From contig CADAFS010000002.1 of NCBI GenBank assembly GCA_902787305.1, positions 31,449 through 95,448 of the forward strand: DNA of 64,000 nucleotides, given 5' to 3'. The notes under the pieces were generated by a model. That model did not search any database. It saw only the letters and a list, made by a program, of their open reading frames with translations, and was not told the origin of the DNA. Position 1 is the stretch's first letter. Each line of letters starts with the position of its first letter. Shown here piece after piece: positions 6,089 through 23,316 of the stretch. The translations under genes and the position numbers were made by a program. This DNA comes from an uncultured Pseudomonadota bacterium (GTDB lineage: Bacteria; Pseudomonadota; Alphaproteobacteria; Rs-D84).

Positions 6089-6105
6089 TTGGTGCGGGCG
6101 AAGGG
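6089..6105. repeat. 17-bp direct repeat of tRNA-Gly(CCC) 3' end (ttggtgcgggcgaaggg), att-like site B
   Basis: Second copy 160 bp from copy A. Preceded by hairpin ccggcaaaatgccgg and 21-bp repeat catgcaaaaattaaaccggca, which also occurs at 5787-5808. Confidence 0.7.
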
Positions 6106-6300: not shown

Positions 6301-7377
6301 ATGAAAAAAACATCCACGTATAATGCAGAAACTTTAAATGGTGTTTTAAGGTTGGCTGAATTGTTTTGTGGCCCTGGTGGTATTGGATTGGGGGCAAAAC
6401 TTGCTAACGTGGACGGTTTAAAGATTAAACATGTCTGGGCTACGGATTACGATAAAGATACATGTGAAACATATAAAAGGAATTTGAACCCAGAAGCAAT
6501 AATTTGTGAAGATATTCGCAAAATGGATTTTGCAAAAATTCATTCAAAATATGGCGAGATAGATTGTTTGACTTTTGGTTTCCCTTGCAATGATTTTAGC
6601 ACGGTTGGCGAACAGAAAGGATTGCACGGGGTTTTTGGTGCTTTGTATCAATATTGTGTAAAAGCATTGGAAGAATTTAAACCGAAATTTTTTATAGCAG
6701 AAAACGTGAGTGGTTTGCGTAATGCTAATGATGGAGAAGCTTTTAATAAGATTTTGGAAGCTTTTAAAAATTGTGGATACAACATATACCCCAATTTATA
6801 TCATTTTGAAGAATATGGTGTTCCACAAAAAAGACATAGAGTCATTATTGTTGGTATACGCAATGATATAAATTTAAAGTTTAAAATACCGTCTACGAAA
6901 CCATATAAAAAAGTGGATAATTCTGTAAGAACTGCTTTGAAAGACATTCCAGAAAAAGCACCAAACAATGAATTAACTGCTCAATCTGCAATGGTTGTAG
7001 AAAGATTGAAATATATAAAGGAAGGTGAAAATGCTTTCACCGCAAAGTTGCCACCACACCTTCAATTAAATGTAAAAGGTGCAAAAATAAGTCAAATTTA
7101 TAAACGGTTAAAAGCAGATGAACCTTCTTATACGATTACTGGTAGTGGTGGCGGTGGCACACATGTATATCATTATAAAGAAAATCGTGCTTTAACAAAC
7201 CGTGAACGTGCAAGGATTCAAACCTTTACGGATGATTTTGTGTTTATAGGGTCGAAAGAAAGTGTTCGTAAACAGATAGGTATGGCGGTTCCACCAAGGG
7301 GTATGAAAATAATATTTGAAGCACTGTTAAATACAATTCTTGGTAATGATTATGAAACAATGGAAGCAAAAGTGTAA
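6301..7377 (+). CDS. DNA (cytosine-5)-methyltransferase (Type II R-M methylase)
   Basis: Motif I FCGPGG, motif IV GFPCNDFS, motif VI ENV, motif VIII QKRHRVIIVG, motif IX RERARIQTFTDDF, motif X GMAVPP. Confidence 0.85.
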   Translation: MKKTSTYNAETLNGVLRLAELFCGPGGIGLGAKLANVDGLKIKHVWATDYDKDTCETYKRNLNPEAIICEDIRKMDFAKIHSKYGEIDCLTFGFPCNDFSTVGEQKGLHGVFGALYQYCVKALEEFKPKFFIAENVSGLRNANDGEAFNKILEAFKNCGYNIYPNLYHFEEYGVPQKRHRVIIVGIRNDINLKFKIPSTKPYKKVDNSVRTALKDIPEKAPNNELTAQSAMVVERLKYIKEGENAFTAKLPPHLQLNVKGAKISQIYKRLKADEPSYTITGSGGGGTHVYHYKENRALTNRERARIQTFTDDFVFIGSKESVRKQIGMAVPPRGMKIIFEALLNTILGNDYETMEAKV

Positions 7378-7380
7378 AAG

Positions 7381-8370
7381 ATGTCCGATATCATATTAAA
7401 AAACGATTTGTTTGAAAAAATATTGTTAGAACCAGCCAGGGAGTGTGATGAGTTGCGGATTGTGTCCGGTTTTTCAACACCTGCTATGGTAGTGCATAAT
7501 TTAACTGAAGTAGAAGAGCAATTTGCAAAACCAGATTTAAAAATACAGTTAATTATAGGTATGACCCCCACAATTTCCGGTATTTCTAAAACGCATCATA
7601 AAAACTTTACTAAACTTGTTGCCAATCGTCCAAACTTTGTGTGTTCGTATATAAAATCAGATGCCAGTCCGATACATACAAAGCTTTATACGTGGCTAAG
7701 AAATGGTGTTCCACAAAAAGCATTTCTTGCTTCTGCAAATTATACGATAAACGCATTTAAAAAAGAACAGGATGAAATAGCAACGGAGTGCGACCCTGTT
7801 CAAGCTTTGGAATATTTTAATTCCAAAGTTCCGCTGTCTTTATATTGCACTTGTGATGAAGCAGAGGAAATGGTTAGAGAAGATGTTTTACGGCAACGTG
7901 TTGCAAGAACGAGAGAAAATTCCGATGAAGAACAACAGGTGCTTGTTGAAAATTCAGGCGTGGAAGGGCAAGACACTGTGTCTTTACCATTATTTGTAGT
8001 TAGAGAAAATAGAATTCATACTCATTCTGGTTTGAATTGGGGGCAAAGAGACCGTAGAAATCCGAATCAGGCCTATATACCAATACCGGCAAAAATAGGT
8101 AGAAGTGGTTTTTTCCCGCCACGTGGACAGCCTTTTGCTGTATTGACTTCAGACGGATTCCCGTTTGTATGTGTTGTAGCACAGGGCGGGGATAAAGCGA
8201 TACATACAACAAATAACAATAGTGAATTTGGTGAATATTTTAGACGCCGGTTGGGTGTCCCATTAGGCGCTCCTATAACATTAGATGATTTGGACCGTTT
8301 TGGGAATAGATATGTTAAATTCACAAAAATAAATGAAGAAGAATATTATATGGAATTCAACCCAAGCTAG
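7381..8370 (+). CDS. Putative Type II restriction endonuclease, PLD-superfamily (BfiI/NgoAVII-like) with C-terminal DNA-binding domain
   Basis: Starts 3 nt after the MTase stop (translationally coupled). N-terminal IHTKLYTWL...(20 aa)...LASANYT resembles the metal-independent PLD nuclease active site (His/Lys ... Asn, spacing H+20 as in BfiI). Call is family-level from motifs only. Confidence 0.45.
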   Translation: MSDIILKNDLFEKILLEPARECDELRIVSGFSTPAMVVHNLTEVEEQFAKPDLKIQLIIGMTPTISGISKTHHKNFTKLVANRPNFVCSYIKSDASPIHTKLYTWLRNGVPQKAFLASANYTINAFKKEQDEIATECDPVQALEYFNSKVPLSLYCTCDEAEEMVREDVLRQRVARTRENSDEEQQVLVENSGVEGQDTVSLPLFVVRENRIHTHSGLNWGQRDRRNPNQAYIPIPAKIGRSGFFPPRGQPFAVLTSDGFPFVCVVAQGGDKAIHTTNNNSEFGEYFRRRLGVPLGAPITLDDLDRFGNRYVKFTKINEEEYYMEFNPS

Positions 8371-8792
8371 AAAAGATTGGTGCTGTGTTCGGCCTGCATG
8401 ACGAACTCAGATATAATAAATAAAATTACCATCCCATACGATTAATAAATCTTGATACGGTTGTTTGTTTGACGGACAGTATTTTTGCATTTCGGTATTA
8501 GATTAATGCATAATATGGTTAGAATTTTTTTCATAAATACTATTTACTTTTTTTTATAAATGTTTTATATTCGGATTGAATCCAAGAGATTGGGTTCGGG
8601 GTCTTTACAAACCCGCTTTATCCGATGCGAAAGCATCGTTATCTGATGGTTTCGGTGCTTTGCATCGTAATCATCCCTGGCTTGATGGTCGGGGTGCCGT
8701 AAGCTATACAACAGGGGTAACCTGAAGGCACGGGGTCAATGATAAAGCGACTGTAAACACTCCCGACCGCCTTTTGTCTGTATGGCGGCCAT

Positions 8793-11700
8793 TTGTTTTT
8801 AGGAAAGGAGATTTATATGCAAAACAAATTGGATTTATCTGTAAAGACAATAACCAAAAACAACATAAAATATAGTTGGGCATTTGTTTTGCTACTAATT
8901 CCTGTTACATCCTATGCTGATTTTAGTTTTAATAATTACCAATACACATTAAATTATTTACGGTCACAACATTTAACAAATGAATTCAGTCATTATACTA
9001 TCAATTTTTCCCCAACACAAAATGATGGGACAATAAATAGTTATGTATATCAAAATGGAACATTAACTCCAGTTAGTTATAATTATACCCTTACACCAAA
9101 TGCTGGGGACCATGGTGGTGGTGTCGTTCTTCATAATGGAGACGATTTAAACGTGTATTGGCACAATGAAACAAATTATAATCTTGTTGCTACTCCTGCA
9201 ACAATAAATACCATCGGAACAATATCTGGGGATTTTATAACTAATTCAGGGTCCGGACAAGCTGGGGGATTAACAAACAATGCTTTTACAATAAATAATT
9301 TATACGGTGATTTTATAGAAAACACTTCAACAACCAATGCTGGAGGCTTGCTTAATCTTGAGAACGGGCTTATTGGTAATATAGTGGGTAATTTTTTAAA
9401 CAATAATGGTATTGGATATGGGGGCGGTATCGACAATGAAGCCACTATTACAAATATAACATCAAATTTTGTTGGGAATATTGTCAATTATCCTGCTAGT
9501 GGTTCTGCCCTGGTTTTTGGGACAGCTATTGGCGGTGGAATTTATAATGCAGGGGCTATAACAGGTATATCGGGAGATTTTATTGATAATAGAGCGTATA
9601 ATTATTTTTCCGATTCCATAACCTCTTACTATTTTTACTCTTTTTCTGGTGGTGGAGCCTTATATAACGGAAAAAATTATTTACAGCCACAAAACAATGT
9701 TGAAACTAATATTATTGAGAACATACAGGGAAATTTTATCGGGAACTCTGCAGTTATTGAAAACATCTATAATCCTACAATAACCGATACTTTATTCTTC
9801 AGTGTTAATGGTGGTGCAATTTTCAATAACTATAATGGTCAAATACAAAACATAAATTCTGATTTTTATAACAATTTTGTGAATATAGATAATACAGGTT
9901 CTCTGTCTGGGATGGATACTATACAATTATGGTCAAGAGGCGGGGCTATTTATAATGAAGGTATAATCAACAATATTACTGGGAGTTTCATTAATAATAG
10001 CGCAACTATAAACAACAATAGTACTTTTAATACAGAAAACGTTCAATTATGGGCTTTTGGAGGCGCTATTTACAATGCTGGACAGCTTGGGTTGCAAGCC
10101 ACATCCAACGACATATTGTTTTCCGGCAACTCCGCAACTTTAGGCGGAGCTATTTATAACACATCCACTTTAACTATGAATATCGCAGAAAACCAACATA
10201 TAATTTTTGACACTGTCAGTGACGATATTTATAATAGCGGAACAATAACAGTATCAGGTGACGGAACTTTGTATTTACAATCTGTATCGGGCAATGGTGT
10301 TTTAAATCTTAATAATCATATTACTCATTTGGCAGACAATGCCGCATTTCAACAATATCTTCTTCAATTAGCGGAAGGGAGCATTTTATATGCTACCCCT
10401 AGTTCTCTTCTCTCTGACACAGGGGTATTAAATGATGGTACTTTATTTTTTTCAGACGGGGTATTATCCACGCACATAACCGGCTCTGGCAATATAATAA
10501 TAAACGGTGACGTGGTTAACGATTCCTACATAGGGAATCAAGTGATTATTAATTATGGTCACTCTTTAACAACTGCCGCTGGGTCGAATAGTTTGCATAA
10601 TGGCATTTTGAATAACGGGACATTATACTTAACAACTGGCTCATTAAGTACATGGACTGATATTACAGGCGATGGAACTATAATAACACTTGGTAATATT
10701 TCTGGTAACGCGGGTCAATTTGGGAACAATATTGTAAATGATTATACATTAACTTTAAACGGTGGAACATTAAATACAAGAATTAGCGGTGATGGAACGC
10801 TTGTTACCACAGGCAATGTAACAATTGATGTAACCGGTGCTTACTATGATACAGGGTATGTTAGTGTAGTAGAAAACAACATACAAAACAATGGGACATT
10901 AACACTTGTCGGTGGAGGTAGATTATGTACAAATATTTCCGGTGATGGTAATGTGGTGATTAATAATTCTTCGGGCTTTGTTGTTTCAGTAGCAGATGAC
11001 AATATTATAAGCGAATCCATAACAATTAATAATGAGGCAAATTTAAATGCATCCGCAAATAGTATTGGCGGAAATGTTATTAATAATGGTCAATTACATC
11101 TTTGGGGTGGGACTTTAACACATAATATTGCAGGAACAGGTTATACAGGCATACATGGTAACACCGAAACATCTGCAAATAATTTGTTAACAAACATTAG
11201 TTTAAGCGGTCTTACTGAATCCGAAGAAATATCACTAACTTTAACAGATGGCACATTACAACGAGTTATAAGCAATGGTAACAATGCAAATAATAATATC
11301 ATTATAGACGGTGATGTTTTATCATCTCCATCAAATCTATTAGTAAATGTTTCTGTAAATGATGGGGCTGTATTAACGTTAACCAATGGTACTTTATCTA
11401 AAAATATAACTGGTAATGGAACGTTATCGACAAGCGATTTAACAACAAGTGCGAATAATCTTGGAATTAACGTTAATAACATAGGCAATTTAACTCTTTC
11501 TGGTGGAACAATAACTCATAATATTACCGGTACAGGGCAAACCACAATCAATGGTGCTGTTACCAATAATGCGCTTATATCTCAAACAATGGTTGTTAAT
11601 TCTGGTAAATCTCTGACAACCGTCGCTGAGGGTATTGGCGGAAATATTTTAAATTCGGGGAATGTTACTTTAACTGGCGGGACCTTAAATAATAATATAT

Positions 11701-13598
11701 CTGGTGGCACAATAACAATAGATGGTAATGTTATTAACGATGGTAATTTGTACGGTTCTCTGGTTATAAATTCAAACAAAAGCCTAACAACTGATGCAGA
11801 TAATATATATTATTCCGGGTTACAAAATAACGGGGAATTGATTTTAACAGGTGGCACAATTTCCGGTGGTATAAATGGTTTATTCTACATATCGGGTAAT
11901 GTAACCAACAATGCTACACAAACTGGACAAATAAACATCTCTAACGGTGGTATGTTTACAACCGGTGGAAATTTATTATCAACAAATAATGCTATTATAA
12001 ATAATGGTACACTTAACATTACCAGTGGCAACCTGCAACAAAATGTTACTGGCGGAAACACCATAATTGCTCAAAACGCAACAACCAGCGCAACCAGTTT
12101 TGGCAATCTGGAATTAAACGGCATTATGAATGTCGGAACCAATACTGTTAATACGGCAAATGCAGATATTAATGGCACTATAAACCTTGGTATATCATCA
12201 TTAAACAAAAATTCCAGTACATATACCGGTGGGCACATTATAGCAGATGACATTGTGTTTGGCGATAATGCCATGCTTAATTTGACCATTACGGACACAA
12301 ACCTGCAAAAGGGTGGTTCCAGTGGTGATATAGAAATAATTACCGCAAATGGTGAATGGACGGGTGATATCGCTACATTTACCAGTAATAATTTGTATGA
12401 TATAGCATATAATACCGAAAATCACACATTTACGTTTACACGTAAAAAATTCGGTGCAGATTTAATAACAGAATTGAACGGGACTGAATTAGATATCAAT
12501 ATCGCCGGGGTTTGGGATGAACTGCAATCATCAGATAATCCAAATATACAAACCATAATAAATGCTATTGACTATAATTCCCAACATAACGCGACCAAAT
12601 ATGCTAAATTAATCCATAATTTGGCGCCACAAAACCATCAGGTTACGGTTGGGGCGGTACGTAACGCCAACACAGTTATAGATAATCATATATTCACTAG
12701 GTTGGCAACACTTAGACGCCCACAAATTAATAGAACCAACGCTAATCTAAGAAAAAGACGCGCAAATCCTTTCTATTATTATGGAAATTATCGTGGCAGA
12801 AACGGTGGTGATACAGAACCGACAACTAACAATGGTATGTGGATAGAAGGACTTTATAATTACGCACAACAAAAAGATGACACAAAGTTTTCTGGCAAAA
12901 CGTTTGGTGTTATGGGCGGTTTTGATTCTAAATTAACGGAACATTTGACCGCTGGTTTAGGGTATGCATTTAACAAAACAAACATTGACGCCGATAATCA
13001 CGATATTGACGCCATGGGGCATACGGGTTTTGTATATGCCGAATATAAACCAACACAATGGTATCTGGACGCTTTGTTGTCATATAACCTGACAAATTAT
13101 CAAAATTCAGCCGCACTTATCGACAATTTGACCGTAAAATCTGATTATAAAACCAACAGTTTGAGTGGCGCCTTGACGTCGGGTTACGATTTTCAAAAAG
13201 GTTTGGATTTATACGGTGGTCTGAATTATATCGGAATTAAACAGGACGCTTACACAGATACCGCCGGTCAATATATCAAAGCCGATGACACACAAATGTT
13301 GACCCTAAAAGCCGGTGGAAGATATAAATTAACAAGTCAAAAAATGAAAAGAGCTAGCACCGTTTTGAAAGCTGCGGTTTTGTACGATGTTATGTCTGAT
13401 GATGGGGTTGCAACGGTAACAGTAGGCAATAATAATTACATTGTTCATGGTAATGGTATTGACCCGTTCGGTGTTCAGGCAGGTATTATGTTTGATTCAT
13501 TTGGTGGCAATACTTATTTATCGCTAGGTTATGACCTTGAATGGCGTAATAATTTCATTAGTCATACAGGTTATATAAAATTGAAATACAATTTCTAA
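8793..13598 (+). CDS. Giant autotransporter / polymorphic-membrane-protein (Pmp)-like adhesin, 1601 aa
   Basis: N-terminal signal peptide (alternative start ATG 8817 MQNKLDL...). Passenger packed with GGA[I/L] tetrapeptides (GGAIYN x>=6) and FxxN repeats (GDFITN, GNFLNN, GDFIDN...), the Pmp hallmark. Many (N)ITG(G)/GTL beta-helix-like repeats. C-terminal ~300 aa beta-barrel translocator ending ...LKYNF (terminal Phe). Strongly AT-rich Asn/Thr/Gly codon usage. Confidence 0.75.
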   Translation: MFLGKEIYMQNKLDLSVKTITKNNIKYSWAFVLLLIPVTSYADFSFNNYQYTLNYLRSQHLTNEFSHYTINFSPTQNDGTINSYVYQNGTLTPVSYNYTLTPNAGDHGGGVVLHNGDDLNVYWHNETNYNLVATPATINTIGTISGDFITNSGSGQAGGLTNNAFTINNLYGDFIENTSTTNAGGLLNLENGLIGNIVGNFLNNNGIGYGGGIDNEATITNITSNFVGNIVNYPASGSALVFGTAIGGGIYNAGAITGISGDFIDNRAYNYFSDSITSYYFYSFSGGGALYNGKNYLQPQNNVETNIIENIQGNFIGNSAVIENIYNPTITDTLFFSVNGGAIFNNYNGQIQNINSDFYNNFVNIDNTGSLSGMDTIQLWSRGGAIYNEGIINNITGSFINNSATINNNSTFNTENVQLWAFGGAIYNAGQLGLQATSNDILFSGNSATLGGAIYNTSTLTMNIAENQHIIFDTVSDDIYNSGTITVSGDGTLYLQSVSGNGVLNLNNHITHLADNAAFQQYLLQLAEGSILYATPSSLLSDTGVLNDGTLFFSDGVLSTHITGSGNIIINGDVVNDSYIGNQVIINYGHSLTTAAGSNSLHNGILNNGTLYLTTGSLSTWTDITGDGTIITLGNISGNAGQFGNNIVNDYTLTLNGGTLNTRISGDGTLVTTGNVTIDVTGAYYDTGYVSVVENNIQNNGTLTLVGGGRLCTNISGDGNVVINNSSGFVVSVADDNIISESITINNEANLNASANSIGGNVINNGQLHLWGGTLTHNIAGTGYTGIHGNTETSANNLLTNISLSGLTESEEISLTLTDGTLQRVISNGNNANNNIIIDGDVLSSPSNLLVNVSVNDGAVLTLTNGTLSKNITGNGTLSTSDLTTSANNLGINVNNIGNLTLSGGTITHNITGTGQTTINGAVTNNALISQTMVVNSGKSLTTVAEGIGGNILNSGNVTLTGGTLNNNISGGTITIDGNVINDGNLYGSLVINSNKSLTTDADNIYYSGLQNNGELILTGGTISGGINGLFYISGNVTNNATQTGQINISNGGMFTTGGNLLSTNNAIINNGTLNITSGNLQQNVTGGNTIIAQNATTSATSFGNLELNGIMNVGTNTVNTANADINGTINLGISSLNKNSSTYTGGHIIADDIVFGDNAMLNLTITDTNLQKGGSSGDIEIITANGEWTGDIATFTSNNLYDIAYNTENHTFTFTRKKFGADLITELNGTELDINIAGVWDELQSSDNPNIQTIINAIDYNSQHNATKYAKLIHNLAPQNHQVTVGAVRNANTVIDNHIFTRLATLRRPQINRTNANLRKRRANPFYYYGNYRGRNGGDTEPTTNNGMWIEGLYNYAQQKDDTKFSGKTFGVMGGFDSKLTEHLTAGLGYAFNKTNIDADNHDIDAMGHTGFVYAEYKPTQWYLDALLSYNLTNYQNSAALIDNLTVKSDYKTNSLSGALTSGYDFQKGLDLYGGLNYIGIKQDAYTDTAGQYIKADDTQMLTLKAGGRYKLTSQKMKRASTVLKAAVLYDVMSDDGVATVTVGNNNYIVHGNGIDPFGVQAGIMFDSFGGNTYLSLGYDLEWRNNFISHTGYIKLKYNF

Positions 13599-14007
13599 AA
13601 TCGGAATTAATAGTAAACACGAGCTTTTTGAATGCCCTAAAACAACGCTTAGAAGGAAGATAATGGGTCGTTAATCGATTGTTCTTTCTTATGAGTATGG
13701 TGTGAATTTGGAGCGATATGGAATGTTTTATGGGACTTCCCAACATTGGTGCAGATAAGTATCATCATTTTTGCATAAAAAGCATAAACTATAAAATTTA
13801 TATAGTTTATTATTAACTATACCGATTAAACCGTAAATACGACCTTATTTTGCTCCGAAGGGTTAAAAATGCTCAAAAAAAGCCATTTTTTCAAGAAAAT
13901 CTGGCGTTTTTTGTAAAATTCTGGCGTACATTTAGTTTTCAACAGTTTATAATAATATCAGATTTAATAAAAGCGTTAAATCATAACTAAAAACAAAAGG
14001 ATATAAA

Positions 14008-14301
14008 ATGAAACAACAGTCTAATCTTTTGAAACAATTCCAGGTATGGATGGAACAAAAGGGTTATAAAAAAACAACACAATCGAATTTGCCAAGCACT
14101 ATTGCAACATATACGGCGTCTTTCCTTCAAATTTGCGAGTGGGAATCTAAAACACCGGAACAAGTTGCAGAATCTATTTCTGACATAGTGCTTGATTACA
14201 CGATAAAAACTCATTCTGCTAGAGGAAGAATGCGCAGTAGGTCCATCCGGGCAAGTGCGGTCGCCTTCAAAAACTTTTTAATCGAATCACAGGTTGCGTG
14301 A
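14008..14301 (+). CDS. Hypothetical small protein (weak resemblance to phage-integrase N-terminal SAM-like/core-binding domain)
   Basis: 97 aa. RBS aaggat 7 nt upstream. Overlaps next ORF by 4 nt (ATGA). Confidence 0.35.
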   Translation: MKQQSNLLKQFQVWMEQKGYKKTTQSNLPSTIATYTASFLQICEWESKTPEQVAESISDIVLDYTIKTHSARGRMRSRSIRASAVAFKNFLIESQVA

Positions 14302-14627
14302 TGAATAAGATTGCCGAATTAAATGATAACCTTAGAAAACATATGTGGTCCCCTGGTCGTAATAAAATCGTTTTGACCAGGGGTGTATGTTCTTTGCCGT
14401 TGATTGAACAAATGTTGTTATTGAAAAAGGTCAGAAATTTTAATGACTTTAATAAAGCAAACGATGTTTATAAACACCATGACTTTGGAAAAATTGAACA
14501 CAATGGGACAAACTATTTTTTCAAGATAGATTATTATGACCCATCGATGGAATATGGTTCAGAAAACCCAGCAAACGAAAATATAACAATCCGGGTTTTA
14601 ACGATAATGCGTGCAGACGAATATTAA
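14298..14627 (+). CDS. DUF3768-like protein (family typical of plasmids/ICEs)
   Basis: 109 aa. Motifs HHDFGKIEH, FFKIDYYD, TIRVLTIMRADEY recalled as the DUF3768 signature. Family call from memory, unverified. Confidence 0.4.
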   Translation: MMNKIAELNDNLRKHMWSPGRNKIVLTRGVCSLPLIEQMLLLKKVRNFNDFNKANDVYKHHDFGKIEHNGTNYFFKIDYYDPSMEYGSENPANENITIRVLTIMRADEY

Positions 14628-14640
14628 AAAAGGACTTGAT

Positions 14641-14784
14641 ATGGCGAATTGCACTTATTTTAAACTTGAAGTTAACGGTATGATATTGCCGGAAATATAT
14701 TTCAACTATGACCAAGCAAAAACCGCATTACAGAATATAGAAAAAACTAATGTTGCTGTAATCGGTAGAGTTATTATGTTTTAA
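14641..14784 (+). CDS. Small ORF (47 aa) MANCTYFKLEVNGMILPEIYF..., hypothetical
   Basis: Immediately downstream of the DUF3768-like ORF. Followed by a clear terminator hairpin. Confidence 0.25.
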   Translation: MANCTYFKLEVNGMILPEIYFNYDQAKTALQNIEKTNVAVIGRVIMF

Positions 14785-14805
14785 CCGTTGATATCAAAAC
14801 AATAA

Positions 14806-14842
14806 AACCTGTATACGCTGGAAAGTATACAGGTTGTTTTTT
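14806..14842 (+). terminator. Rho-independent terminator (aacctgtatac-gctggaaa-gtatacaggtt + T6)
   Basis: 11-bp perfect stem, T-run. Ends the 14008-14784 small-gene operon. Confidence 0.7.
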
Positions 14843-14878
14843 ACATTTGTTCCATATTTGAGTCGTGGCTGCCCCAAT

Positions 14879-15517
14879 CTAGAAATGCTTAATACTTAGT
14901 ATCCGATGACTCAAAGGAGCAACCACAAAGGGTTTGTGTGATGATTTGGAATGTTTTGTATCGTCTGGAAACATCTCGGTTGATAAAAATACTCGATTAT
15001 CGTCAAAATAGGCGTCTTTATTGGCTTTGATTTCCTTTGTTGCATAAAAATACGCTTTGCATTCGGTTCTGTTCATTGTTTGAATATCAACCACATCCGG
15101 AGAATAACAAAAATGTTTTATAGTTTTATCTATCGCCGCGGTTATTTTATAATTGTGGTATCGGTTATTCTGTAAAAACATATGAAAATGCCACTTGTTG
15201 GATGAATTCTGTTCACCGAAACCGATAAATAATAACTGTTTACGAAACCAGTGTCTTGGACTTAATTGCTTTTGAAAATACTTCATAACCCGTCGTAAAT
15301 AACTTCGGGATATTTCCATACTTTTACTACGCTGATTTGTTGGAAATTGGATTGAAATAAAGTGCGTCGGAGCAAATTCACACAACCATTTGCAAATTTC
15401 CCGTCTTAAAATCAATGTTTGTTTTGCATTTTTACGAATTATACAATCAATTCTGTATACATCCACCATATCATTATTTGTAGTTAACATTTTTACCACC
15501 ATTGTTGTTGCAACCAC
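14879..15517 (-). CDS. Hypothetical protein with HUH-endonuclease-like motifs (possible rolling-circle Rep/relaxase-like initiator)
   Basis: Contains HFISIQF (motif-1-like), WHFHMFL (HUH-like H-F-H), and AYFYATKEIK (YxxK motif-3-like) in the canonical order. Start uncertain (several in-frame Met). Not verifiable without search. Confidence 0.3.
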   Translation of the reverse strand: MVATTMVVKMLTTNNDMVDVYRIDCIIRKNAKQTLILRREICKWLCEFAPTHFISIQFPTNQRSKSMEISRSYLRRVMKYFQKQLSPRHWFRKQLLFIGFGEQNSSNKWHFHMFLQNNRYHNYKITAAIDKTIKHFCYSPDVVDIQTMNRTECKAYFYATKEIKANKDAYFDDNRVFLSTEMFPDDTKHSKSSHKPFVVAPLSHRILSIKHF

Positions 15518-15889
15518 AGATGCAAATCAAATCACGATAGGTTGTGGTGGTGTGGTGGTAATGATTCTTTCTGCATCTATGGTTATTAACATAAATTAGA
15601 ACATCTGTTTTATTGTTTTTGCGTTGTGGTTGTATTTTCTTGAAAAAGAGTAAAAAAATTAAACAACACGATTGTTTTTTCGGCTGTTAATTTTTTTAAC
15701 CAACATATATCAACCGCATTGCGTCTATGTTTATCGTCGAATACCACATCGAAAGTCCACAAGCGATACAATATACACATTTTTATAGAACAGTTTTTTG
15801 TGGTGGTTGCATGGACGGAATTATTTTTTTGATAAAAATCCCGGTGTTTTAAACCGGGATTGATGGTTGCACCATATGGCGCTTTATTA

Positions 15890-16078
15890 TTATTTTGGTT
15901 TAGCGATACGCATAAAATCGCAAGTTGATATCAACATACACCTGTTTAATCGTGCAAAATCCGGACCTTCCGTTTTCAAATTTTTATAAATTTGTTTAAC
16001 GGAAAATCTTTTGTCTGGGAATAATTCTTGTAATCTTTCCTTGGCAAATTTTGCTTCAATTTTTAACCTGTTATTCAT
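15890..16078 (-). CDS. Small protein (62 aa), last gene of 3-gene MTase operon; possible DNA-binding/regulatory protein
   Basis: Start overlaps stop of upstream MTase by 8 nt. Basic, helix-rich sequence. Confidence 0.3.
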   Translation of the reverse strand: MNNRLKIEAKFAKERLQELFPDKRFSVKQIYKNLKTEGPDFARLNRCMLISTCDFMRIAKPK

Positions 16079-17294
16079 GATTTTCTCCTTCGGTTTTTGT
16101 ATTAGGGTTAAATTCTGCTTTTACAAATTCGGCAACAACGGCACAGCAGTGTGCACTAACCCAGCATTCCCCCAAAACAGTGCGGAGCAACTTGGTTTTC
16201 TGTCGTGCCCAATATGGAATTTCGATATCATCGGGTAATCCGATTGCACGAAAAATTTCATGTATTGTGAATGTACGGCAATCTGTAAATTGTTCGTTTC
16301 CGTCCTTATCCAAAATTGGTTTACCGTTATCATCAACAATTAATCGACCTGGATGAATCATATGATATGCGGATAGTTCACCACTATTCGTCAAAATCGA
16401 ATGCATTGGTTCATTCCACCTCGCGCGGCTGAAAGCACCAGCGTGTTTAGCACCACTTACTTTTTTAGATAATGTTAGTGGGGAAACAACCCGTTCACCA
16501 GTTGGTGTTATTCGTATTTGGTCTGCTTGCCAAGGTGCGACATACCCAGGTTCATCGTACCAATCTGGTCCACGTTGCCCGAATTCCAGTGTTGGTAAAT
16601 CGTCAATTGCATCTTCCAATGTTAATGGGATTTCTGTGATTGGTTCTGGTAATTTTATTGGTTTAACCTTTGACGCCATAATAATTGTTCGTGGCCGATT
16701 AATTGCTACCCCGAAATGTTTTGCATTTTGAACGGCTTTACAAACATATTGAAAACCAAGATTTCTTAATTCTTTTTCTATTTGGTCGCCAAGCAGAAGT
16801 TCATATTTCTTCGTTTTAAAAGTTAACATATCTTCCGCATTTTCTATGGCGCAGAATTCATATGATGGACAGCGTTTTAAATGTTCCATAACCGCTTCGA
16901 ATAGATATTGTTCATCACTATCTTCATCCTTCCTTGTGTTTGCCCGAGTTATTTGCTGACAGCATGGACTTGCCAGAAGTATTTGCGGTTGTTCTTTATT
17001 TGCAATTTCAGCCAATTTATCTTGCACTTTCGGGTTGGTTATATCACCAATTACCATCGTTGAATTTTTAAAAAGTGCATGATTTAGTTTAGCGCGGTCT
17101 GGTACCAACTCGTTCGTCAAAACAACATCTACCCCTATGTTTTGAAGGTAATACTGGTTTATTCCAGCACACGCAAATAGATTGGTCGCCTTCAAACGAT
17201 GGGGCGTGTCTATTTTGATTTGTTGGGGTTGAACGTGCGACTTGATTTTGTCGCATGTTGTTTTTATTAATAAATCACTGTTATTTCGTGCCAT
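16071..17294 (-). CDS. Second DNA (cytosine-5)-methyltransferase
   Basis: Motif I LFACAGI, motif IV ASPCCQQ (PC), motif VIII QNAKHFGVAINRPRTIIMA, motif IX RTFTIHEIFRAIGLPDD, C-terminal GECWV. Variable TRD between VIII and IX. 14-nt overlap with upstream ORF. Confidence 0.75.
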   Translation of the reverse strand: MARNNSDLLIKTTCDKIKSHVQPQQIKIDTPHRLKATNLFACAGINQYYLQNIGVDVVLTNELVPDRAKLNHALFKNSTMVIGDITNPKVQDKLAEIANKEQPQILLASPCCQQITRANTRKDEDSDEQYLFEAVMEHLKRCPSYEFCAIENAEDMLTFKTKKYELLLGDQIEKELRNLGFQYVCKAVQNAKHFGVAINRPRTIIMASKVKPIKLPEPITEIPLTLEDAIDDLPTLEFGQRGPDWYDEPGYVAPWQADQIRITPTGERVVSPLTLSKKVSGAKHAGAFSRARWNEPMHSILTNSGELSAYHMIHPGRLIVDDNGKPILDKDGNEQFTDCRTFTIHEIFRAIGLPDDIEIPYWARQKTKLLRTVLGECWVSAHCCAVVAEFVKAEFNPNTKTEGENHE

Positions 17295-18414
17295 TGTAAT
17301 CTCCTTTGGCTTCGCTGATTAAATAATTTTGTTTTAGGTATTTGAAACTTTCGTCGTGAATTTCCAAGACCGGAAAAGTCGGATACATTTGTTGGATGAT
17401 TTCCGCATAATATAATGGGTGTTTATCCGTTTTTGTGATTTCTCGGTCAAATACAACGGAATCCATTTTTAGGTTCTGCGGCTTCGGGGCGTCTCCCTTA
17501 CACACTATCACCATTGTTCGATGTTGACGGGTTGTAAAAGCCCCGTTGTGTGATTTACCGGTATCCACAACCGCAAATTCTTTTACCGTAAATCGTAAAT
17601 TTTTCAGAATATCCAATGATTTTTGAATTTGTGATTCATCCAGCCAGAAAAATCCAACGGCATCTTCCGCAATATGATTTCGCATAATTTCAACATTGAT
17701 TTTATACACCAAATCACCATAAATTACCGGAAATTTTGCATTTTCTGGTAAATCAAACATAGGGGCATCACCGGCTTCAAGAACCGTGAATGTTTTGTTT
17801 TCCGATTTTTCATCCGTATGAATTTTTTGATTAAGTTGGTACAAAGTCGGCAAATCTTCAACATCCCAATCGCCACTTTTTAACTTTTTTAACGACTCTT
17901 GGGTGGCGCGTTCGACCATGTCAAAGGTTATATCTTTTCTTATTGTCCATTTTTTTCGCGACAATTTATATTCGTCCCATGCCATTTTATAACTTGGAAA
18001 TCGCCCAGATTTGATATCCCGTTTAATATGCTCTACCTTTTGGACTTCTCGATAAAGCAACCACGAATTCAAATAAATCGCTGTTTCGCATACACCAGTA
18101 TGATTTTCTAATTCATCCGGCGAATTTGCATGTTTGAGTGCACCCTTGGCATCGGATAATAACTTTTCGGCATCTTTTTCATATTCCGCCAATTCTGCTT
18201 CCGTTAAAACTCGAACATCTGGTAATAATGTACAACCAGACACCATTACCGCCGTATTAATCGGATTTGATTCGGTCGTTTCAACGGGTTGAGTTAATTC
18301 TTGCTGTTCTGTTTGTTCGGATAAATCTGCCACCATATCGATTTCTAGACCAATCCTAGACGCATTTAATTCGGCCGCGTTTAAACCATTATTTAAAGAA
18401 TTCATAACTAGCAT
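17281..18414 (-). CDS. Hypothetical 377-aa protein, first gene of MTase operon (candidate cognate restriction endonuclease or other defence partner)
   Basis: No recognisable motifs by eye. Translationally coupled to the C5-MTase. Acidic N-terminus. Probable true start at second ATG (18405) with AAGGA RBS. Confidence 0.4.
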   Translation of the reverse strand: MLVMNSLNNGLNAAELNASRIGLEIDMVADLSEQTEQQELTQPVETTESNPINTAVMVSGCTLLPDVRVLTEAELAEYEKDAEKLLSDAKGALKHANSPDELENHTGVCETAIYLNSWLLYREVQKVEHIKRDIKSGRFPSYKMAWDEYKLSRKKWTIRKDITFDMVERATQESLKKLKSGDWDVEDLPTLYQLNQKIHTDEKSENKTFTVLEAGDAPMFDLPENAKFPVIYGDLVYKINVEIMRNHIAEDAVGFFWLDESQIQKSLDILKNLRFTVKEFAVVDTGKSHNGAFTTRQHRTMVIVCKGDAPKPQNLKMDSVVFDREITKTDKHPLYYAEIIQQMYPTFPVLEIHDESFKYLKQNYLISEAKGDYNGTK

Positions 18415-18799
18415 TCCTTAATTTTTGACAATAAAAGCACCCTTTGCGAAATCGCATTATCGGTTCTGCTCCGGGAAACTTTAGGTTAAAATTTGGATGA
18501 AAAACTTTTCGGTTTACATCCGCTTAAACTTGGTCTAGAATGTTCATTGCATATGAGTCGTTCTAGACCATTAGTTCGATTCTTTAATTTGGGGTTAACG
18601 GTTTCATATCGTTGCTCCATTTTTTTATTTGTTAATTTTTTTTACACAACAATGATTAAATAAACCGCAGAAATTCGCCAGAAATTTATTTTCATTTTTT
18701 GCAAATAAATTTTGGAAAAAATTTTGAAAAAAACAGTTTGTATCAAATTAAAAATTAAAATCCTTGATTTTGGGGCTTTTTTAATTACGATATGTAGCA

Positions 18800-19303
18800 A
18801 TGCTACACATTTGGAAAAACATGGACGGAAAACTGAATATTTTTTTGGCTAATTTATACAAATACCTGAACGAATCGGTGGATTTTTTGGATGTATGGTT
18901 AAAACAAAATCCGATAAAAAAACGAATCATAACGCCAATTGAAATGAAAATATTATATGGATTAAAATACGAAAATTTGAAAACACAGCGGGATATTGAA
19001 AACCATTATAATATGTATCGTTCAACAATTATGAAAACATTAAACAAATTAAAATCAGACGGATTATTAACAATCGAAACAAAATCATTTAAAAATCGCA
19101 CCATAACGCTTACCCAAACAGGTAATGAAACCATTGAATCTATTTTTACACAGATTGCCACTTTTTATCAAAATATGGTGAAAAACGAAATGAAGAATTT
19201 AGATGATGATGGCGTTATGGATGAATGTATAACAACTACACAGAAGGCTTATTTAAATCTCGGCCGAATAATAAAATATTTACCACACAGAAACAAAAAA
19301 TGA
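18800..19303 (+). CDS. Putative winged-helix (MarR-like) transcriptional regulator
   Basis: 167 aa. Central segment QRDIENHYNMYRSTIMKTLNKLKSDGLLTIE resembles the MarR/SlyA HTH-wing. Divergent from the MTase operon. Confidence 0.35.
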   Translation: MLHIWKNMDGKLNIFLANLYKYLNESVDFLDVWLKQNPIKKRIITPIEMKILYGLKYENLKTQRDIENHYNMYRSTIMKTLNKLKSDGLLTIETKSFKNRTITLTQTGNETIESIFTQIATFYQNMVKNEMKNLDDDGVMDECITTTQKAYLNLGRIIKYLPHRNKK

Positions 19304-19379
19304 AATACACTATATGGCGTTTAACCACTGAATAAGCCATCAAACAAATTTCAAGCACACGCGTAAAAAGGCCTTCGTG

Positions 19380-19500
19380 TATTTTTGATTATTTCAATGT
19401 TGGTTTTGGTGTGGGTGGTGGCTAGTCGGGGCTGGCGGCTGGCAGGTGGGTATCCTGGGATGCCGGGTGGGATATGGTAGCCCCCGGGTAGGTGGGTATA
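19380..19500. repeat. G-rich tract with GGTGGG/GGTGGGTAT iterations immediately 3' of integrase stop
   Basis: tggttttggtgtgggtggtggctagtcggggctggcggctggcaggtgggtatcctgggatgccgggtgggatatggtag...ggtaggtgggtataacc. Confidence 0.5.
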
Positions 19501-19514
19501 ACCAGCGCAATCAA

Positions 19515-21095
19515 CTATTTTTTTGACATAACTTTTTTCCAGTAATCAAATTCCGGTTGCAGAAAATCGTATCGCAGTTTATCCGCTTGTTCTTTGATTT
19601 TTGCCAGCGTATGCTTGGAATAGTGTTGTTCCATAATTGTTTGGCCTTTCCAGCCCATAATATTGTTGATATATGATTGTGGAACTAAAAAATCCTGCAA
19701 TTGTAAACTTGCATTATTGCGGAAAGAATGGAAATCCAATTTACCCTTGTATGGTTTAGATAAATTCAAACTACGAATAAACGGTAAAATGCCTTCGGAT
19801 ACATATTTATTATTATAATTACCTTTGCTGTTAACCGCTTGGGTAAATACAGGGTCACTATCTTCGGCTTTTAATCTGCTTTTTTTCCTTTGAGCCCAAT
19901 CAATAAATCCCAAATCCAATAATTGTGTTGGAAGTGGCAACACTCGTATTGTTGCACCAGTTTTTAATTGTTTGGTTTTATTGTCCTTATCTTTATGGAA
20001 ATAGATACAATAACAACCATCTACATCAATAATATCTTTATATTGAATTGTTACTGCTGCATTTGTTCTGGCACCAGCAAACATTCCCATCAAAATAGCC
20101 CAAAAATCGTCAGGGTTATCTTTGAAATGTTTGTGTTTTGGGTTGAATATTTCTTTCAAATCTTTTTCTGTGTATGGCATATGCGGATTTTGGGATTCGC
20201 CTTTTTTATAAACAGGATAGCGGTTGTTAAAATTTTTGTACAATCCGGGATATTCTCTGTCTGCATAATTGTATAATGCCTTTAAATAACCGACTTTCTT
20301 GCCTTTTGTTGCATCTGTCGCCCACTTAGGGTTTGTTTTTATTTCGTTTATTATCGCATCAATTTTTGCTTCATTATTAAATTCAGCGTAATCGGAATCA
20401 ATGGTCAATCCAATTTTTTTGGCCATATGTTTAAAAAACGATTCTTTCTTGCGTTTTTCTGCATCCCCATTATTTTCATGCTGAATCCAAGCGTCTCTCA
20501 ATTCCCTTATCGTGTGTTTTTCCGGTGGTGTTCCAGAACCGGAACCTGAATTTATGTAATCCATTTGTAATATTTTTTGTTGATTTTGCATGATTACTTC
20601 TTGATTGGTTAAAATTTGCCCCATCATTTCTTCTAAGTGTTGTATTTGGTCAATCGTATCTGGGTCAGTAATGCTCAATTTTAATTTTTGTAATCTTGAA
20701 TATATTCCAAGTAAAGCCTTTATTTTTATAGGGTCGTTTTGAATCGATATGCGTTTAACTTTGCACATCATCATTTGACCGCCGCAATCAATTTCCTTAT
20801 CGTATTCATCAAAAACCATATTTTTTGATATCGATTCAGCGGCAAGAATTAATGTTTTTGCTTCAAAGTTTTTTGAATATGAATTGTCTTTCATTTGTTT
20901 CGCCTTTTCCAACGCCTCATAATAATTTTTCGTATGTAATGATTTTATAAAATATCGGCGTTTACCATTTTGACGCGGTAATTCAACCATATAATAAAAC
21001 ACATCACCCCTAAGATAAAGATTGTCATTTGCTTGACAGTTTGCTTTACACTTCTTGAACATAGTTATTTTCTCCTTGTTTTTCAAGTGCGCCAA
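19515..21095 (-). CDS. int: Tyrosine-type site-specific integrase (phage integrase family), tRNA-adjacent
   Basis: 526 aa. C-terminal catalytic region with ARTNAAV (Arg), KTGATIRVLPL, HSFRNNASLQL (H-x-x-R), MGWKGQTIMEQHYSKHT (catalytic Tyr). Lies 100 bp from the tRNA-Gly 3' end, co-oriented. Confidence 0.8.
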   Translation of the reverse strand: MAHLKNKEKITMFKKCKANCQANDNLYLRGDVFYYMVELPRQNGKRRYFIKSLHTKNYYEALEKAKQMKDNSYSKNFEAKTLILAAESISKNMVFDEYDKEIDCGGQMMMCKVKRISIQNDPIKIKALLGIYSRLQKLKLSITDPDTIDQIQHLEEMMGQILTNQEVIMQNQQKILQMDYINSGSGSGTPPEKHTIRELRDAWIQHENNGDAEKRKKESFFKHMAKKIGLTIDSDYAEFNNEAKIDAIINEIKTNPKWATDATKGKKVGYLKALYNYADREYPGLYKNFNNRYPVYKKGESQNPHMPYTEKDLKEIFNPKHKHFKDNPDDFWAILMGMFAGARTNAAVTIQYKDIIDVDGCYCIYFHKDKDNKTKQLKTGATIRVLPLPTQLLDLGFIDWAQRKKSRLKAEDSDPVFTQAVNSKGNYNNKYVSEGILPFIRSLNLSKPYKGKLDFHSFRNNASLQLQDFLVPQSYINNIMGWKGQTIMEQHYSKHTLAKIKEQADKLRYDFLQPEFDYWKKVMSKK

Positions 21096-21196
21096 AGCAA
21101 AAAATGTTGGGAATCCAAAGATTTATTTGCATTGATATGTTTTTTATATCAAACAAAAAATCCGGTCAAAGTGCCGGATTTGTGATAAAACTATCT

Positions 21197-21270
21197 TGGT
21201 GCGGGCGAAGGGAATCGAACCCTCGTCTAAAGCTTGGGAAGCTTTCGTGCTGCCATTATACCACGCCCGC
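21197..21270 (-). tRNA. tRNA-Gly (anticodon CCC)
   Basis: Reverse complement GCGGGCGTGGTATAATGGCAGCACGAAAGCTTCCCAAGCTTTAGACGAGGGTTCGATTCCCTTCGCCCGCACCA. 7-bp acceptor, anticodon loop TTCCCAA, T-arm GGGTTCGATTCCC, encoded CCA. Near-identical in architecture to enterobacterial glyU. Confidence 0.85.
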
Positions 21271-21321: not shown

Positions 21322-21786
21322 TTAGCGCGAACACACATTAGTTGAAAGCCCAAGTTCTTTTTTCATGTTTTCTAATTTGCGCTTGGCTGATTTGCAAACA
21401 TCTCTGCTTGGGGATTGGGTGTTCAAAACATTTAACAGGTCTTCTATCTGGGTTATGCATGTTGTTTTGGTGAACACGTCCAATGTTAATTCAAATTTAA
21501 CCTTGGTGTGCAGCGCGTTAAAACGGCGAATTAATTCGGCCCAATTCTTTTCGAGCTTGGTTTGCGGGTTCCCAGCCCGCGCCTGCATACGGTTTCGGCG
21601 TTTTTCATTCATGTTATCTTTCGTTTCCTTCATAAAACCTTGTCGGGGCAAAACCGAAATTGCCACGAACCCTTTTGTGATTACGTTGTGGTCGAATTGT
21701 TTTTTGTTTTGCCCCGGTGGAAACAGCGTATACCTGTTGCCCATGTCTATAATGATAAGTTGTTTTTGTGTTACAAGGATTTTCAC
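21322..21786 (-). CDS. Hypothetical protein (154 aa), AT-rich, flanking tRNA-Gly
   Basis: ORF only. Basic central region (NEKRRNRMQARAGNPQTKLEKNWAELIRRF) could be DNA-binding. Confidence 0.3.
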   Translation of the reverse strand: MKILVTQKQLIIIDMGNRYTLFPPGQNKKQFDHNVITKGFVAISVLPRQGFMKETKDNMNEKRRNRMQARAGNPQTKLEKNWAELIRRFNALHTKVKFELTLDVFTKTTCITQIEDLLNVLNTQSPSRDVCKSAKRKLENMKKELGLSTNVCSR

Positions 21787-21807
21787 TCATTTCAGTACCC
21801 CATATAG

Positions 21808-23316
21808 TTATTTTGTTTTTTGATTTTTAATCCATTCCTGAATCAACCAAAATTTATCACCAAATAGTTGTTGTTCGGTAACCGAATAGCGTTTGGCGGC
21901 GGTTATCAAATCCGACAGAATTTTTAATTCCGTTGAACCAAGTCTGTCCGAAGGGCGTGCAGATGGGTCAAGATTCTTTATAATCGAATTCGCGGCTGTT
22001 AAAATCGCATACAGATAATGCGTTCCGTCCGGCATTGGATAATCGTTGCAATATTCGTATACCTCAGAAAGTCTATAATCATCGGCTTTATAATTATCTT
22101 CATGATGTTCTATATGAAGTCTATGCGGGAACCGAATGTGGGCGGCAATTAAAAAACATCTTTGCCAACGCTGTTTCATGTTGTCCGAAAGACTTGGCGA
22201 TTCAAACCCCAAGAACGAATAAAAATCACCCCAACGATATATATAGTCCAGTTTATAACGTCTATACTTTTCTGTGACTTTTTCGGATGGGTGTTCGAAG
22301 CTTTTATAAATGGAATCAAGATCGCGAAGGAAGTCCCGGTTGCAATATAATGACAATAACTGATAATATTCGGTGACATCGGTCGATGGTTTTTCGATAT
22401 TATCGTAAACATTTTTTAATGATTGGTGTGATTTATACGCGGATTTTAGTGCAAGTTTTTGAAGTTTTATATCCGCCTTTTTAACCGTCCCAATTTGATT
22501 CGGTGCGAGTGCGATCATAGATTTAATTAAATCGTTATCAGGTTGCGGAACAAGGGCAAATATGGAATTAAATAATTGCCTGTTATTTTTTGCCACGGCA
22601 ACCCTGCAAATAACTTTGAAATCATCATCGGTGAACAGCCCGCGATTCTTGTTGATAAATGTCATCAATTGGTCGGTCGTTAAACCGTTCGATCCATTTT
22701 GTTGCATGCTTTTCAAAAATGCCGGCTTATCAAATTTTTGAATAGACAACTGGTCTTTGAGTATTGCGTTGATTGTTTGTTCAGGTGTGATACATTCGGT
22801 GGGTATTTTGTCGATTTCAAATGGAAACTGATGTAAAAAGCCGCCAACCAGTGATGGCAACGGGTGCCGAATATATTGTATGTTTTTACGTGATAATCCA
22901 TATGCAAAACGTTGCAAGTTGTCCGACAATTCGTCACATTTCAAAAGCAATTTTGGATCTTCAAGTATTACAAGTTTGATTTCCAATGGGTGCAAAAATT
23001 TTTCCGCAGGATTTTCATCGGTTGCCGCCTTCATTCGGTTCATAAGGAATTTTATCAATTCCTTGTATTCTGCCTGAAATTTTTCGGTATCGGCAATCCC
23101 TGGGCGCAGTGTGTTGCCTAAAATCGCGTCCGACGCCACGGATTTAAAAAAGGACTTGGTTATAAACTGTATTTTTATTGTAGGATCCTGTTGGTATTCA
23201 CCAAGCAATTCGTTTAAAACTTTTTCAATGTCACGGTTTTTAGATTGCTGTTTCTTTTCCATGTCCATTTTTTTCCATTCTGGAACATAGGGGTGGGGTG
23301 TTTTGGCTGCGTACAT
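21808..23316 (-). CDS. Hypothetical 502-aa protein (no recognisable domain; AT-rich, possibly laterally acquired)
   Basis: Long uninterrupted ORF with plausible start. Confidence 0.45.
   Translation of the reverse strand: MYAAKTPHPYVPEWKKMDMEKKQQSKNRDIEKVLNELLGEYQQDPTIKIQFITKSFFKSVASDAILGNTLRPGIADTEKFQAEYKELIKFLMNRMKAATDENPAEKFLHPLEIKLVILEDPKLLLKCDELSDNLQRFAYGLSRKNIQYIRHPLPSLVGGFLHQFPFEIDKIPTECITPEQTINAILKDQLSIQKFDKPAFLKSMQQNGSNGLTTDQLMTFINKNRGLFTDDDFKVICRVAVAKNNRQLFNSIFALVPQPDNDLIKSMIALAPNQIGTVKKADIKLQKLALKSAYKSHQSLKNVYDNIEKPSTDVTEYYQLLSLYCNRDFLRDLDSIYKSFEHPSEKVTEKYRRYKLDYIYRWGDFYSFLGFESPSLSDNMKQRWQRCFLIAAHIRFPHRLHIEHHEDNYKADDYRLSEVYEYCNDYPMPDGTHYLYAILTAANSIIKNLDPSARPSDRLGSTELKILSDLITAAKRYSVTEQQLFGDKFWLIQEWIKNQKTK

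Follow-up and report, generated by a model that had tools for sequence, protein, structure and literature searches.

A putative pseudo-methyltransferase of the MT-A70 fold is paired with a C5 cytosine methyltransferase on integrative elements of uncultured gut Alphaproteobacteria

This analysis concerns three overlapping genes on a 64,000-nucleotide stretch of DNA from an uncultured alphaproteobacterium (GenBank assembly GCA_902787305.1, contig CADAFS010000002.1, positions 31,449 to 95,448), hereafter called the window. The genes are an open reading frame (ORF) for a protein of 377 amino acids (aa), pMTA; the gene of a divergent C5 cytosine DNA methyltransferase (MTase), C5M; and a small basic ORF, orf62. 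According to profile searches and structure models, pMTA is a catalytically degenerate member of the MT-A70/beta-class amino-MTase fold, and wherever a locus continues beyond its stop codon, its gene is directly followed, usually with an overlap, by a C5-MTase gene. These genes probably constitute an orphan modification module made up of an intact C5-MTase and, as its non-catalytic partner, the co-translated pseudo-MT-A70 protein, the likely purpose being protection of the DNA of the mobile element that carries them.

The initial annotation, made from the sequence alone, had described three minus-strand ORFs overlapping by 14 and 8 nt, and the coordinates agree with this (Table 1): pMTA and C5M share positions 17281 to 17294, and C5M and orf62 share positions 16071 to 16078. 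Both downstream genes possess an AAGGAG Shine-Dalgarno sequence 7 nt ahead of their ATG, each located inside the preceding gene. The position of the C5M Shine-Dalgarno sequence within pMTA is read as translational coupling, and a three-gene translationally coupled unit appears to be a fair description of the arrangement in the window. The closest database homologue of pMTA, P0001, comprises 374 aa, and an AAGGA motif precedes Met4 of pMTA; therefore, the true translation start is probably Met4, at coordinate 18405.

Conventional searches did not disclose the nature of pMTA. No Pfam family was found at an E value of ≤0.1 and no NCBIfam family, the gathering threshold of PF05063 not being reached, and none of the 13 clusters that form the pMTA family among 5.8 billion proteins carries a Pfam domain. 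The C-terminus gave a single weak match to the PADLOC MTase_II model (E = 2.3e-4), one PHROG match was of unknown function, and searches of PDB sequences with either the single sequence or the 13-sequence profile returned only chance matches to carbonic anhydrases (E > 1). The fold was seen only via an exhaustive profile search and structure models. With the 13-sequence alignment, the profile search retrieved 385 relatives, most of which align only to profile positions of approximately 240 to 350; PF05063 (MT-A70) was present in 33 of 43 sampled relatives. The consensus of these PF05063 proteins, VIYADPPW ... LFLW ... WGF.Y.T.AVWDK ... QHE.LL.ATKG ... HS.KP..YE.IE.MYP...LELF.R, matches the C-terminal part of pMTA in a column-by-column alignment, and hhalign comparison of the pMTA family with canonical bacterial MT-A70 proteins gave a probability of 99.1% (E = 1.6e-18) over residues 222 to 353. 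The best structural matches of the modeled protein were the METTL3-METTL14 and Tetrahymena MTA1-MTA9 proteins, its viral structure matches were IME4/MT-A70 and N4/N6 methylases, and it displays the permuted Rossmann-type arrangement of the MT-A70 fold. The initial annotation had recognized no motif in the 377-aa protein; the DPPW motif is indeed absent, but the MT-A70 fold is recognizable and places the protein in a nucleic-acid MTase superfamily rather than in a housekeeping family unrelated to DNA, a possibility that had been raised at the same time. As no Pfam domain is on record for the family and searches with a single sequence fail to reveal it, annotation pipelines and finders of restriction-modification (R-M) or defence systems will either overlook it or, as in this case, suggest a false restriction enzyme.

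pMTA is predicted to consist of three parts. The N-terminal tail is acidic, as first annotated, and predicted to be disordered, with values of the predicted local distance difference test (pLDDT) below 50 in both models; in the family alignment this region is poorly conserved, variable, and gapped. It is followed by an all-helical domain that is common to the degenerate clade only, has no specific match elsewhere, and is possibly involved in binding DNA or a partner protein. The MT-A70 fold occupies the C-terminal part. Family, profile, and structure searches detected no helix-turn-helix (HTH) or known DNA-binding family in pMTA, and neither family searches nor structure comparison revealed a nuclease fold or motif. 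The ratio of nonsynonymous to synonymous substitution rates (dN/dS) of pMTA amounts to 0.24 to 0.37, and in the 13-sequence family alignment, where identity falls as low as 43%, more than 100 columns are invariant; the gene is under purifying selection and is maintained rather than decaying. A tblastn search of annotated plasmid and phage collections with pMTA gave no match, and a scan of viral contigs with the protein P0024 found nothing. One relative from the profile search, P0083 (762 aa), combines ParB_N, MT-A70, and a zinc-finger-like C-terminus and, like the fusion protein P0153 described below, illustrates the domains with which active relatives are associated; MT-A70 proteins bearing ParB_N account for 4 of the 43 sampled relatives.

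The active site of pMTA appears to be dismantled. In place of the catalytic (D/N/S)PP(W/Y/F) motif, pMTA features G-D-L-V-Y, with both prolines gone. All 18 sampled relatives bearing DPPW also hold HSxKP, ELFxR, and WxWGN, for which the pMTA equivalents are DKHP in the first case and EIHDE in the second, WGN being absent; in addition, approximately 22 residues after the DPPW position, equivalent to active-site loop 1 of METTL3, are deleted. The lost motifs align to METTL3 His512/Lys513, Arg536/His538, and Asn549/Gln550. In METTL3, these residues hold S-adenosylmethionine (SAM), the DPPW motif and active-site loop 1 hold the target adenine, the exchanges Asp395Ala or Asn549Ala/Gln550Ala abolish activity, and METTL14 was judged inactive on the same kinds of residue loss (PMC5023411). 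Across the wider clade of paired proteins, the tetrad drifts (DLVY, DLSC, SLAD, ELDD/EFDD, DLAD, DLTE, DLSA, DLSS, and DFNK); since it is not conserved there, whatever function the clade has kept cannot be amino-methylation. From the sequence comparisons and the models, we conclude that pMTA is a pseudo-methyltransferase, presumably devoid of catalytic activity.

The second gene had been taken for an unmistakable 5-methylcytosine MTase distinct from the one encoded at position 6301, and both points hold: C5M reaches PF00145 with 74.6 bits against a cutoff of 22 (E = 1.2e-20) and is only approximately 19% identical to the other C5-MTase of the island. Its match to PADLOC MTase_II is strong (E = 1.3e-48), the remaining PADLOC matches being the methylase models DruM, DrmMII, and oMTase. 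The protein is divergent, however; it stays below the curated cutoff of NCBIfam TIGR00675 (dcm) with 48.5 versus 100.65 bits, and phmmer found no solved C5-MTase at an E value of ≤1e-3. C5M carries SPCCQ (motif IV), IENA (motif VI), and NRPR (the RxR of motif VIII). The corresponding patterns (S/C)P(K/C/P)CQ, EN(A/V), and RxR are kept in 12 of 12 paired C5M homologues; a motif X of the form GE(A/C)x.P, specific to the clade, is likewise common to them. With a dN/dS of 0.13 to 0.22 and the motifs in place, C5M looks catalytically competent and is presumed to be the catalytic component. Its clade is bounded, comprising 37 clusters, with identity falling from 43% to 30% at the edge; an MTase at 30% identity, outside the clade, had no degenerate MT-A70 partner.

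The pairing of the two genes was followed across the window and the loci L001 to L009, L011 to L013, L015, L016, L018 to L020, L022, and L023. In 19 of the 19 loci extending past the MT-A70 stop, a C5-MTase gene of this clade lies directly downstream of the degenerate MT-A70 gene, the distance from stop to start ranging from −38 to +16 nt, and the pairing persists down to identities of 18 to 25% for the MT-A70 protein and 25 to 44% for the C5-MTase. Within the close family (L001 to L009, L011, and L012), the junctions determined, those of L001, L004, and L006, are −14 or −11 nt. At L013, where C5M is 57% identical and the partner (motif YAEFDD) matches the family profile with an E value of 6e-72, it is −14 nt, and at L015 and L016, with a C5M identity of 44% and a partner at 1e-39 (motif YLDLTE), it is −38 nt. 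The distant degenerate MT-A70 proteins have junctions of +16 nt (L018, from the profile search), −8 nt (L019 and L023), +2 nt (L020), and +3 nt (L022, where the MTase is an uncalled ORF). The L018 pair is located in a different element backbone, with another integrase and FtsK. At L012 (positions 9001 to 11166 of CANBCI010000003.1), the pMTA and C5M homologues are each split into two frames, reflecting either pseudogenization of the pair in that metagenome-assembled genome (MAG) or assembly errors.

The third gene is not part of this strict association. Homologues of orf62 occur in L006, L008, and L009, with 98% conservation in L009 and 66% in L006 and L008, and a divergent, weakly similar ORF of approximately 70 aa fills the same overlapping position in L004, L005, and L011; among the loci compared, orf62 is absent from L001/L002, L013, and L015. 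The initial annotation had envisaged an MTase with two co-translated partners and had proposed co-conservation of all three genes as a check: pMTA and C5M stand this comparison, but orf62, being found in only some relatives, is a facultative accessory. No significant family was found for it in Pfam, NCBIfam, PHROG, or PADLOC, including any HTH_3-type C-protein domain or Vsr endonuclease domain, as the annotation had expected for this basic protein, and a search of the protein database for called homologues recovered orf62 alone. The 550-aa C5M homologue P0176 was considered as a natural pMTA-C5M fusion and rejected; it is a C5M protein with a 145-aa C-terminal extension resembling the small ORF after C5M in L004 and L011, which suggests that the small accessory ORF can be fused to the MTase. 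The region following orf62 folds over 54 nt into two hairpins (minimum free energy, −15.5 kcal/mol; z, −3.0) and likely marks the 3′ end of the three-gene unit; the hairpin was spotted by eye and then folded, the consensus terminator scan having not listed it. A sigma-70 promoter scan yielded fewer sites than shuffled sequences and was uninformative, and a repeat search in the two intergenic regions flanking the unit gave only AT-rich matches at chance level.

The unit resides on a mobile island, as the initial annotation had stated. The 3′-terminal 19 nt of a tRNA-Gly gene, TGGTGCGGGCGAAGGGAAT (positions 21197 to 21215), are repeated at positions 5928 to 5946, and the two copies bound a low-GC island of approximately 15.3 kb (5928 to 21215). 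With a tyrosine integrase next to the tRNA gene and repeats of the tRNA 3′ end on its flanks, the island has the makeup of a tRNA-targeted integrative element. A partial copy of 16 nt at positions 6089 to 6104 stands 160 bp from the 5928 copy and may have been left by a tandem or earlier insertion. A Candidatus Enterousia MAG matches the window at 98%, and all relatives stem from gut or rumen metagenomes and uncultured Alphaproteobacteria.

The conserved backbone of the element comprises the integrase, a winged-helix regulator, pMTA-C5M(-orf62), a HUH Rep-like gene, orf57, DUF3768, and orf97; the pMTA-C5M pair is thus part of the backbone and not variable cargo. The regulator is kept upstream of pMTA in L001, L003, and L006 to L009. 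The Rep-like gene matches PF23343 with 23.2 bits, below the threshold of 27.8, is syntenic in all longer loci, and in seven loci retains the HUH motif (WHFHMF) and the tyrosine motif Y..xK(E/Q)(I/L); judging by these motifs, its product would be a rolling-circle initiator or relaxase, implying single-stranded DNA intermediates for the element family. A bidirectional terminator hairpin was observed at positions 14806 to 14835. DUF3768 (E = 1e-30) is not mentioned in the open-access literature searched. Family searches of the backbone genes next to pMTA-C5M gave no nuclease candidate and no match to a PADLOC defence model.

Cargo differs between relatives. In the window it includes a complete conventional Type II R-M system, separate from the pMTA-C5M pair and made up of a C5-MTase (6301 to 7377; PF00145, 3e-77; PADLOC MTase_II, 7e-118) and an NgoFVII-family PLD + B3 endonuclease (7381 to 8370; PF09565 and PF20731; PADLOC REase_II, 5e-13); L004 carries an Eco47II-type R-M system instead. 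A second cargo gene, at positions 8793 to 13598, is a 1601-aa ORF with a TTG start, Asn/Gly/Thr repeats, a weak match to the Chlamydia-PMP repeat, and a beta-barrel-like C-terminus, which probably encodes an autotransporter-type surface protein; in L006, the corresponding place is taken by an ORF of 2094 aa. These loci define a family of small integrative elements that had not been described before; its hosts are uncultured gut Alphaproteobacteria with reduced genomes (Candidatus Enterousia and relatives), and its cargo includes R-M systems and large surface proteins. Just beyond the tRNA gene, at positions 21322 to 23316 of the minus strand, lie two ORFs (154 and 502 aa) with no Pfam family.

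Table 1. Positions of the three-gene unit, its parts, and the neighboring element genes in the window
Feature	Position	Strand	Remark
pMTA (377-aa ORF)	17281..18414	-	Degenerate MT-A70-fold protein; from ORF list
pMTA acidic N-terminal tail, residues 1-59	18238..18414	-	Predicted disordered
pMTA all-helical domain, residues 65-204	17803..18222	-	Invariant basic patch (S/T/K)RKKW..RK..TF
pMTA MT-A70 (beta-class amino-MTase) fold, residues 225-372	17299..17742	-	
G233-D-L-V-Y237, remnant of DPPW motif	17704..17718	-	Family-invariant form GDLxYK
C5M (407-aa ORF)	16071..17294	-	Divergent C5 cytosine DNA MTase
C5M Shine-Dalgarno AAGGAG	17301..17306	-	Within pMTA 3′ end
C5M motif IV S109-P-C-C-Q113	16956..16970	-	Catalytic Cys112-Gln113
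orf62 (62-aa ORF)	15890..16078	-	Basic accessory ORF
orf62 own Shine-Dalgarno	16085-16090	-	Read from the sequence
Terminator-like hairpin	15829..15861	-	9-bp GC-rich stem and U-tract, ~30 nt past orf62 stop
tRNA-Gly(CCC), integration target	21197-21270	-	Adjoins tyrosine integrase
Tyrosine integrase	19515..21095	-	PF00589, DUF6538; homologue in L001
Winged-helix regulator	18800..19303	+	Divergently transcribed; weak winged-HTH family matches
HUH rolling-circle Rep/relaxase-like gene	14879..15517	-	Weak PF23343 match
orf97/DUF3768/orf57 backbone trio	14008-14784	+	DUF3768, PF12599

In the orphan modification module that we favor, pMTA and C5M would be made together and would act together. C5M would do the chemistry, i.e., methylate DNA, and pMTA, itself non-catalytic, would assist it in binding DNA, in selecting the target, or by activating it, with the 62-aa protein as an optional accessory. 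Methylation of the element's own DNA, and of that of the host, would allow the element to survive restriction on entering new cells; orphan MTases on mobile elements have been reported to protect incoming DNA (PMC11541004; PMC7736820).

Several points weigh against this explanation. Binding of pMTA to C5M is presumed, and the likely anti-restriction role is drawn only by analogy. The pairwise divergences of pMTA and C5M are correlated (Mantel r of 0.86, equaled in 0 of 5000 permutations), but this is expected for any two genes on one element and shows co-inheritance, not interaction. The alleles are, moreover, shuffled: L009 combines a pMTA 98% identical to that of the window with a C5M of 68% (orf62, 98%; Rep, 69%), L006 combines a pMTA of 65% with a C5M of 96%, and L001 has a breakpoint inside pMTA, the N-terminal half being approximately 58% and the C-terminal half approximately 100% identical to the window. 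MTase alleles appear to have been exchanged among elements that are nearly identical elsewhere, possibly with a change of specificity. Given this shuffling, the two proteins either share a conserved interface or do not require tight co-adaptation. pMTA retains Asp234, and Tyr237 does not vary within the 13-member family; therefore, judged from sequence, some residual unconventional activity or SAM binding is conceivable. The DPPW control for the pairing is a single canonical protein on short contigs, followed by a non-MTase gene. Finally, the 981-aa protein P0153 is a canonical DPPW MT-A70 (residues 252 to 407) fused to a C5 DNA_methylase (residues 629 to 932), which makes a double-methylase ancestor plausible, and the linkage of pMTA and C5M could plausibly be a legacy of it.

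A bolder form of the same explanation, which we put forward tentatively, holds that the pseudo-enzyme is obligatory and confers on the C5-MTase a property that the latter lacks alone, which would make the pair the first prokaryotic complex of a dead MT-A70 and a live C5-MTase. Candidates for such a property are target selection or the modification of single-stranded or replicating DNA made by the HUH Rep in the course of rolling-circle replication or transfer. If true, bacteria would have arrived independently at the principle known from METTL14, MTA9, and DNMT3L.

The alternative that survives best, though unlikely in our judgment, is that pMTA works separately from C5M, either as a DNA-binding regulator of the element (acting on the operon, the Rep origin, or excision), as a replication or transfer accessory, or as an anti-defence decoy, the two genes sharing co-regulation only. 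It agrees with the placement of the pair between the winged-HTH regulator and the HUH Rep in a conserved backbone, with the invariant basic patch of the helical domain, and with the free recombination of pMTA and C5M alleles. Yet the junction, kept within the range given above over deep divergence and in different backbones such as that of L018, is tighter than expected for co-regulation, and the searches for an HTH or a known DNA-binding family in pMTA were negative.

Less probable still is a pair of independent orphan MTases with two protective specificities, in which pMTA would be an active amino-methyltransferase (N6-adenine or N4-cytosine) acting through its D-L-x-Y tetrad. The near invariance of Asp234 and the invariance of Tyr237 in the 13-member family speak for it, as the spacing between Asp and the aromatic residue of DPPW is kept; a fusion of the canonical MT-A70 with a C5-MTase exists (P0153), and mobile elements commonly carry multi-MTase modules. 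Against it, both prolines are lost, as are the active-site loop of approximately 22 aa and the positions aligning to SAM contacts of METTL3, namely WGN and the Arg within ELFxR; in the wider paired clade, the tetrad varies freely and occurs without the aromatic residue and sometimes without the Asp.

Two further readings are highly improbable. The initial annotation had proposed a new Type II restriction endonuclease or defence module, with pMTA or orf62 as nuclease or effector and C5M as the protecting enzyme; an MTase with uncharacterized co-translated partners in a mobile island, in elements whose family does carry defence cargo, invites this view, but pMTA has an MTase fold and no nuclease motif, orf62 is missing from many relatives, the conserved neighbors include no nuclease candidate, the pair is backbone rather than variable cargo, and the island holds its complete R-M system elsewhere. 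The comparison with PADLOC-DB 2.0 likewise failed to support a known anti-phage system, as pMTA and C5M matched no system-specific model beyond generic MTases and the neighbors matched nothing. That pMTA is a decaying, functionless relic of a once-active MT-A70 gene would fit the loss of catalytic and cofactor motifs and the frameshifts in both genes of L012, but not its low dN/dS and many invariant columns, the intact reading frame in all other loci, and the retention of the protein to approximately 20% identity.

The module belongs to the broad category of orphan mobile-element MTases. Like the orphan or anti-restriction MTases of plasmids, phages, and integrative and conjugative elements (leading-region MTases, M.EcoGIX, and M.BceJIII), it has no cognate nuclease and is borne by a mobile element; those enzymes, however, are single active proteins with an intact DPPY or DPPW motif, whereas the MT-A70 protein of the module is degenerate and always stands beside a separate C5-MTase. 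It resembles Type II R-M systems, such as the NgoFVII-type one at positions 6301 to 8370, in that a C5-MTase gene and a partner gene are tightly linked on a mobile island, but no endonuclease was found in the pair and the partner has an MTase fold. M.AquI and M.EcoHK31I are C5-MTases that require the products of two genes, which adjoin or overlap, for their activity; there, a single C5-MTase fold is divided into halves or completed by an accessory piece, whereas C5M holds all motifs itself and its partner pMTA has a different fold. The open-access literature searched contained no description of an inactive or degenerate bacterial MT-A70 protein paired with a C5-MTase.

The closest parallels are eukaryotic. 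METTL3-METTL14 is the writer of N6-methyladenosine and Tetrahymena MTA1-MTA9 that of N6-methyladenine in DNA; in both, a dead MT-A70-fold subunit lacking DPPW and the SAM-contacting residues, as does pMTA, is conserved and required beside an active MTase. Each of these writers is built from two MT-A70 paralogues and yields N6-methyladenine, whereas the partner gene of pMTA encodes a C5-MTase of an unrelated class, on a bacterial mobile element, so that the pair is not a METTL3/METTL14-type writer and the likeness would be a functional analogy built on a presumed interaction. DNMT3L, an inactive MTase-like protein that stimulates the C5 cytosine DNA MTase DNMT3A/B, resembles the module in joining an inactive MTase-like partner to a C5 enzyme; it differs in being a degenerate C5-MTase paralogue rather than an amino-MTase fold, and in being eukaryotic and linked to chromatin. 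Non-catalytic MTase paralogues that partner active enzymes (METTL14, MTA9, and DNMT3L) are regarded as a eukaryotic theme. A conserved bacterial module of a dead MT-A70 and a C5-MTase, if true, would show that this principle has also emerged in prokaryotes, on a mobile element, and would offer a small two-protein system for studying what a pseudo-methyltransferase contributes.

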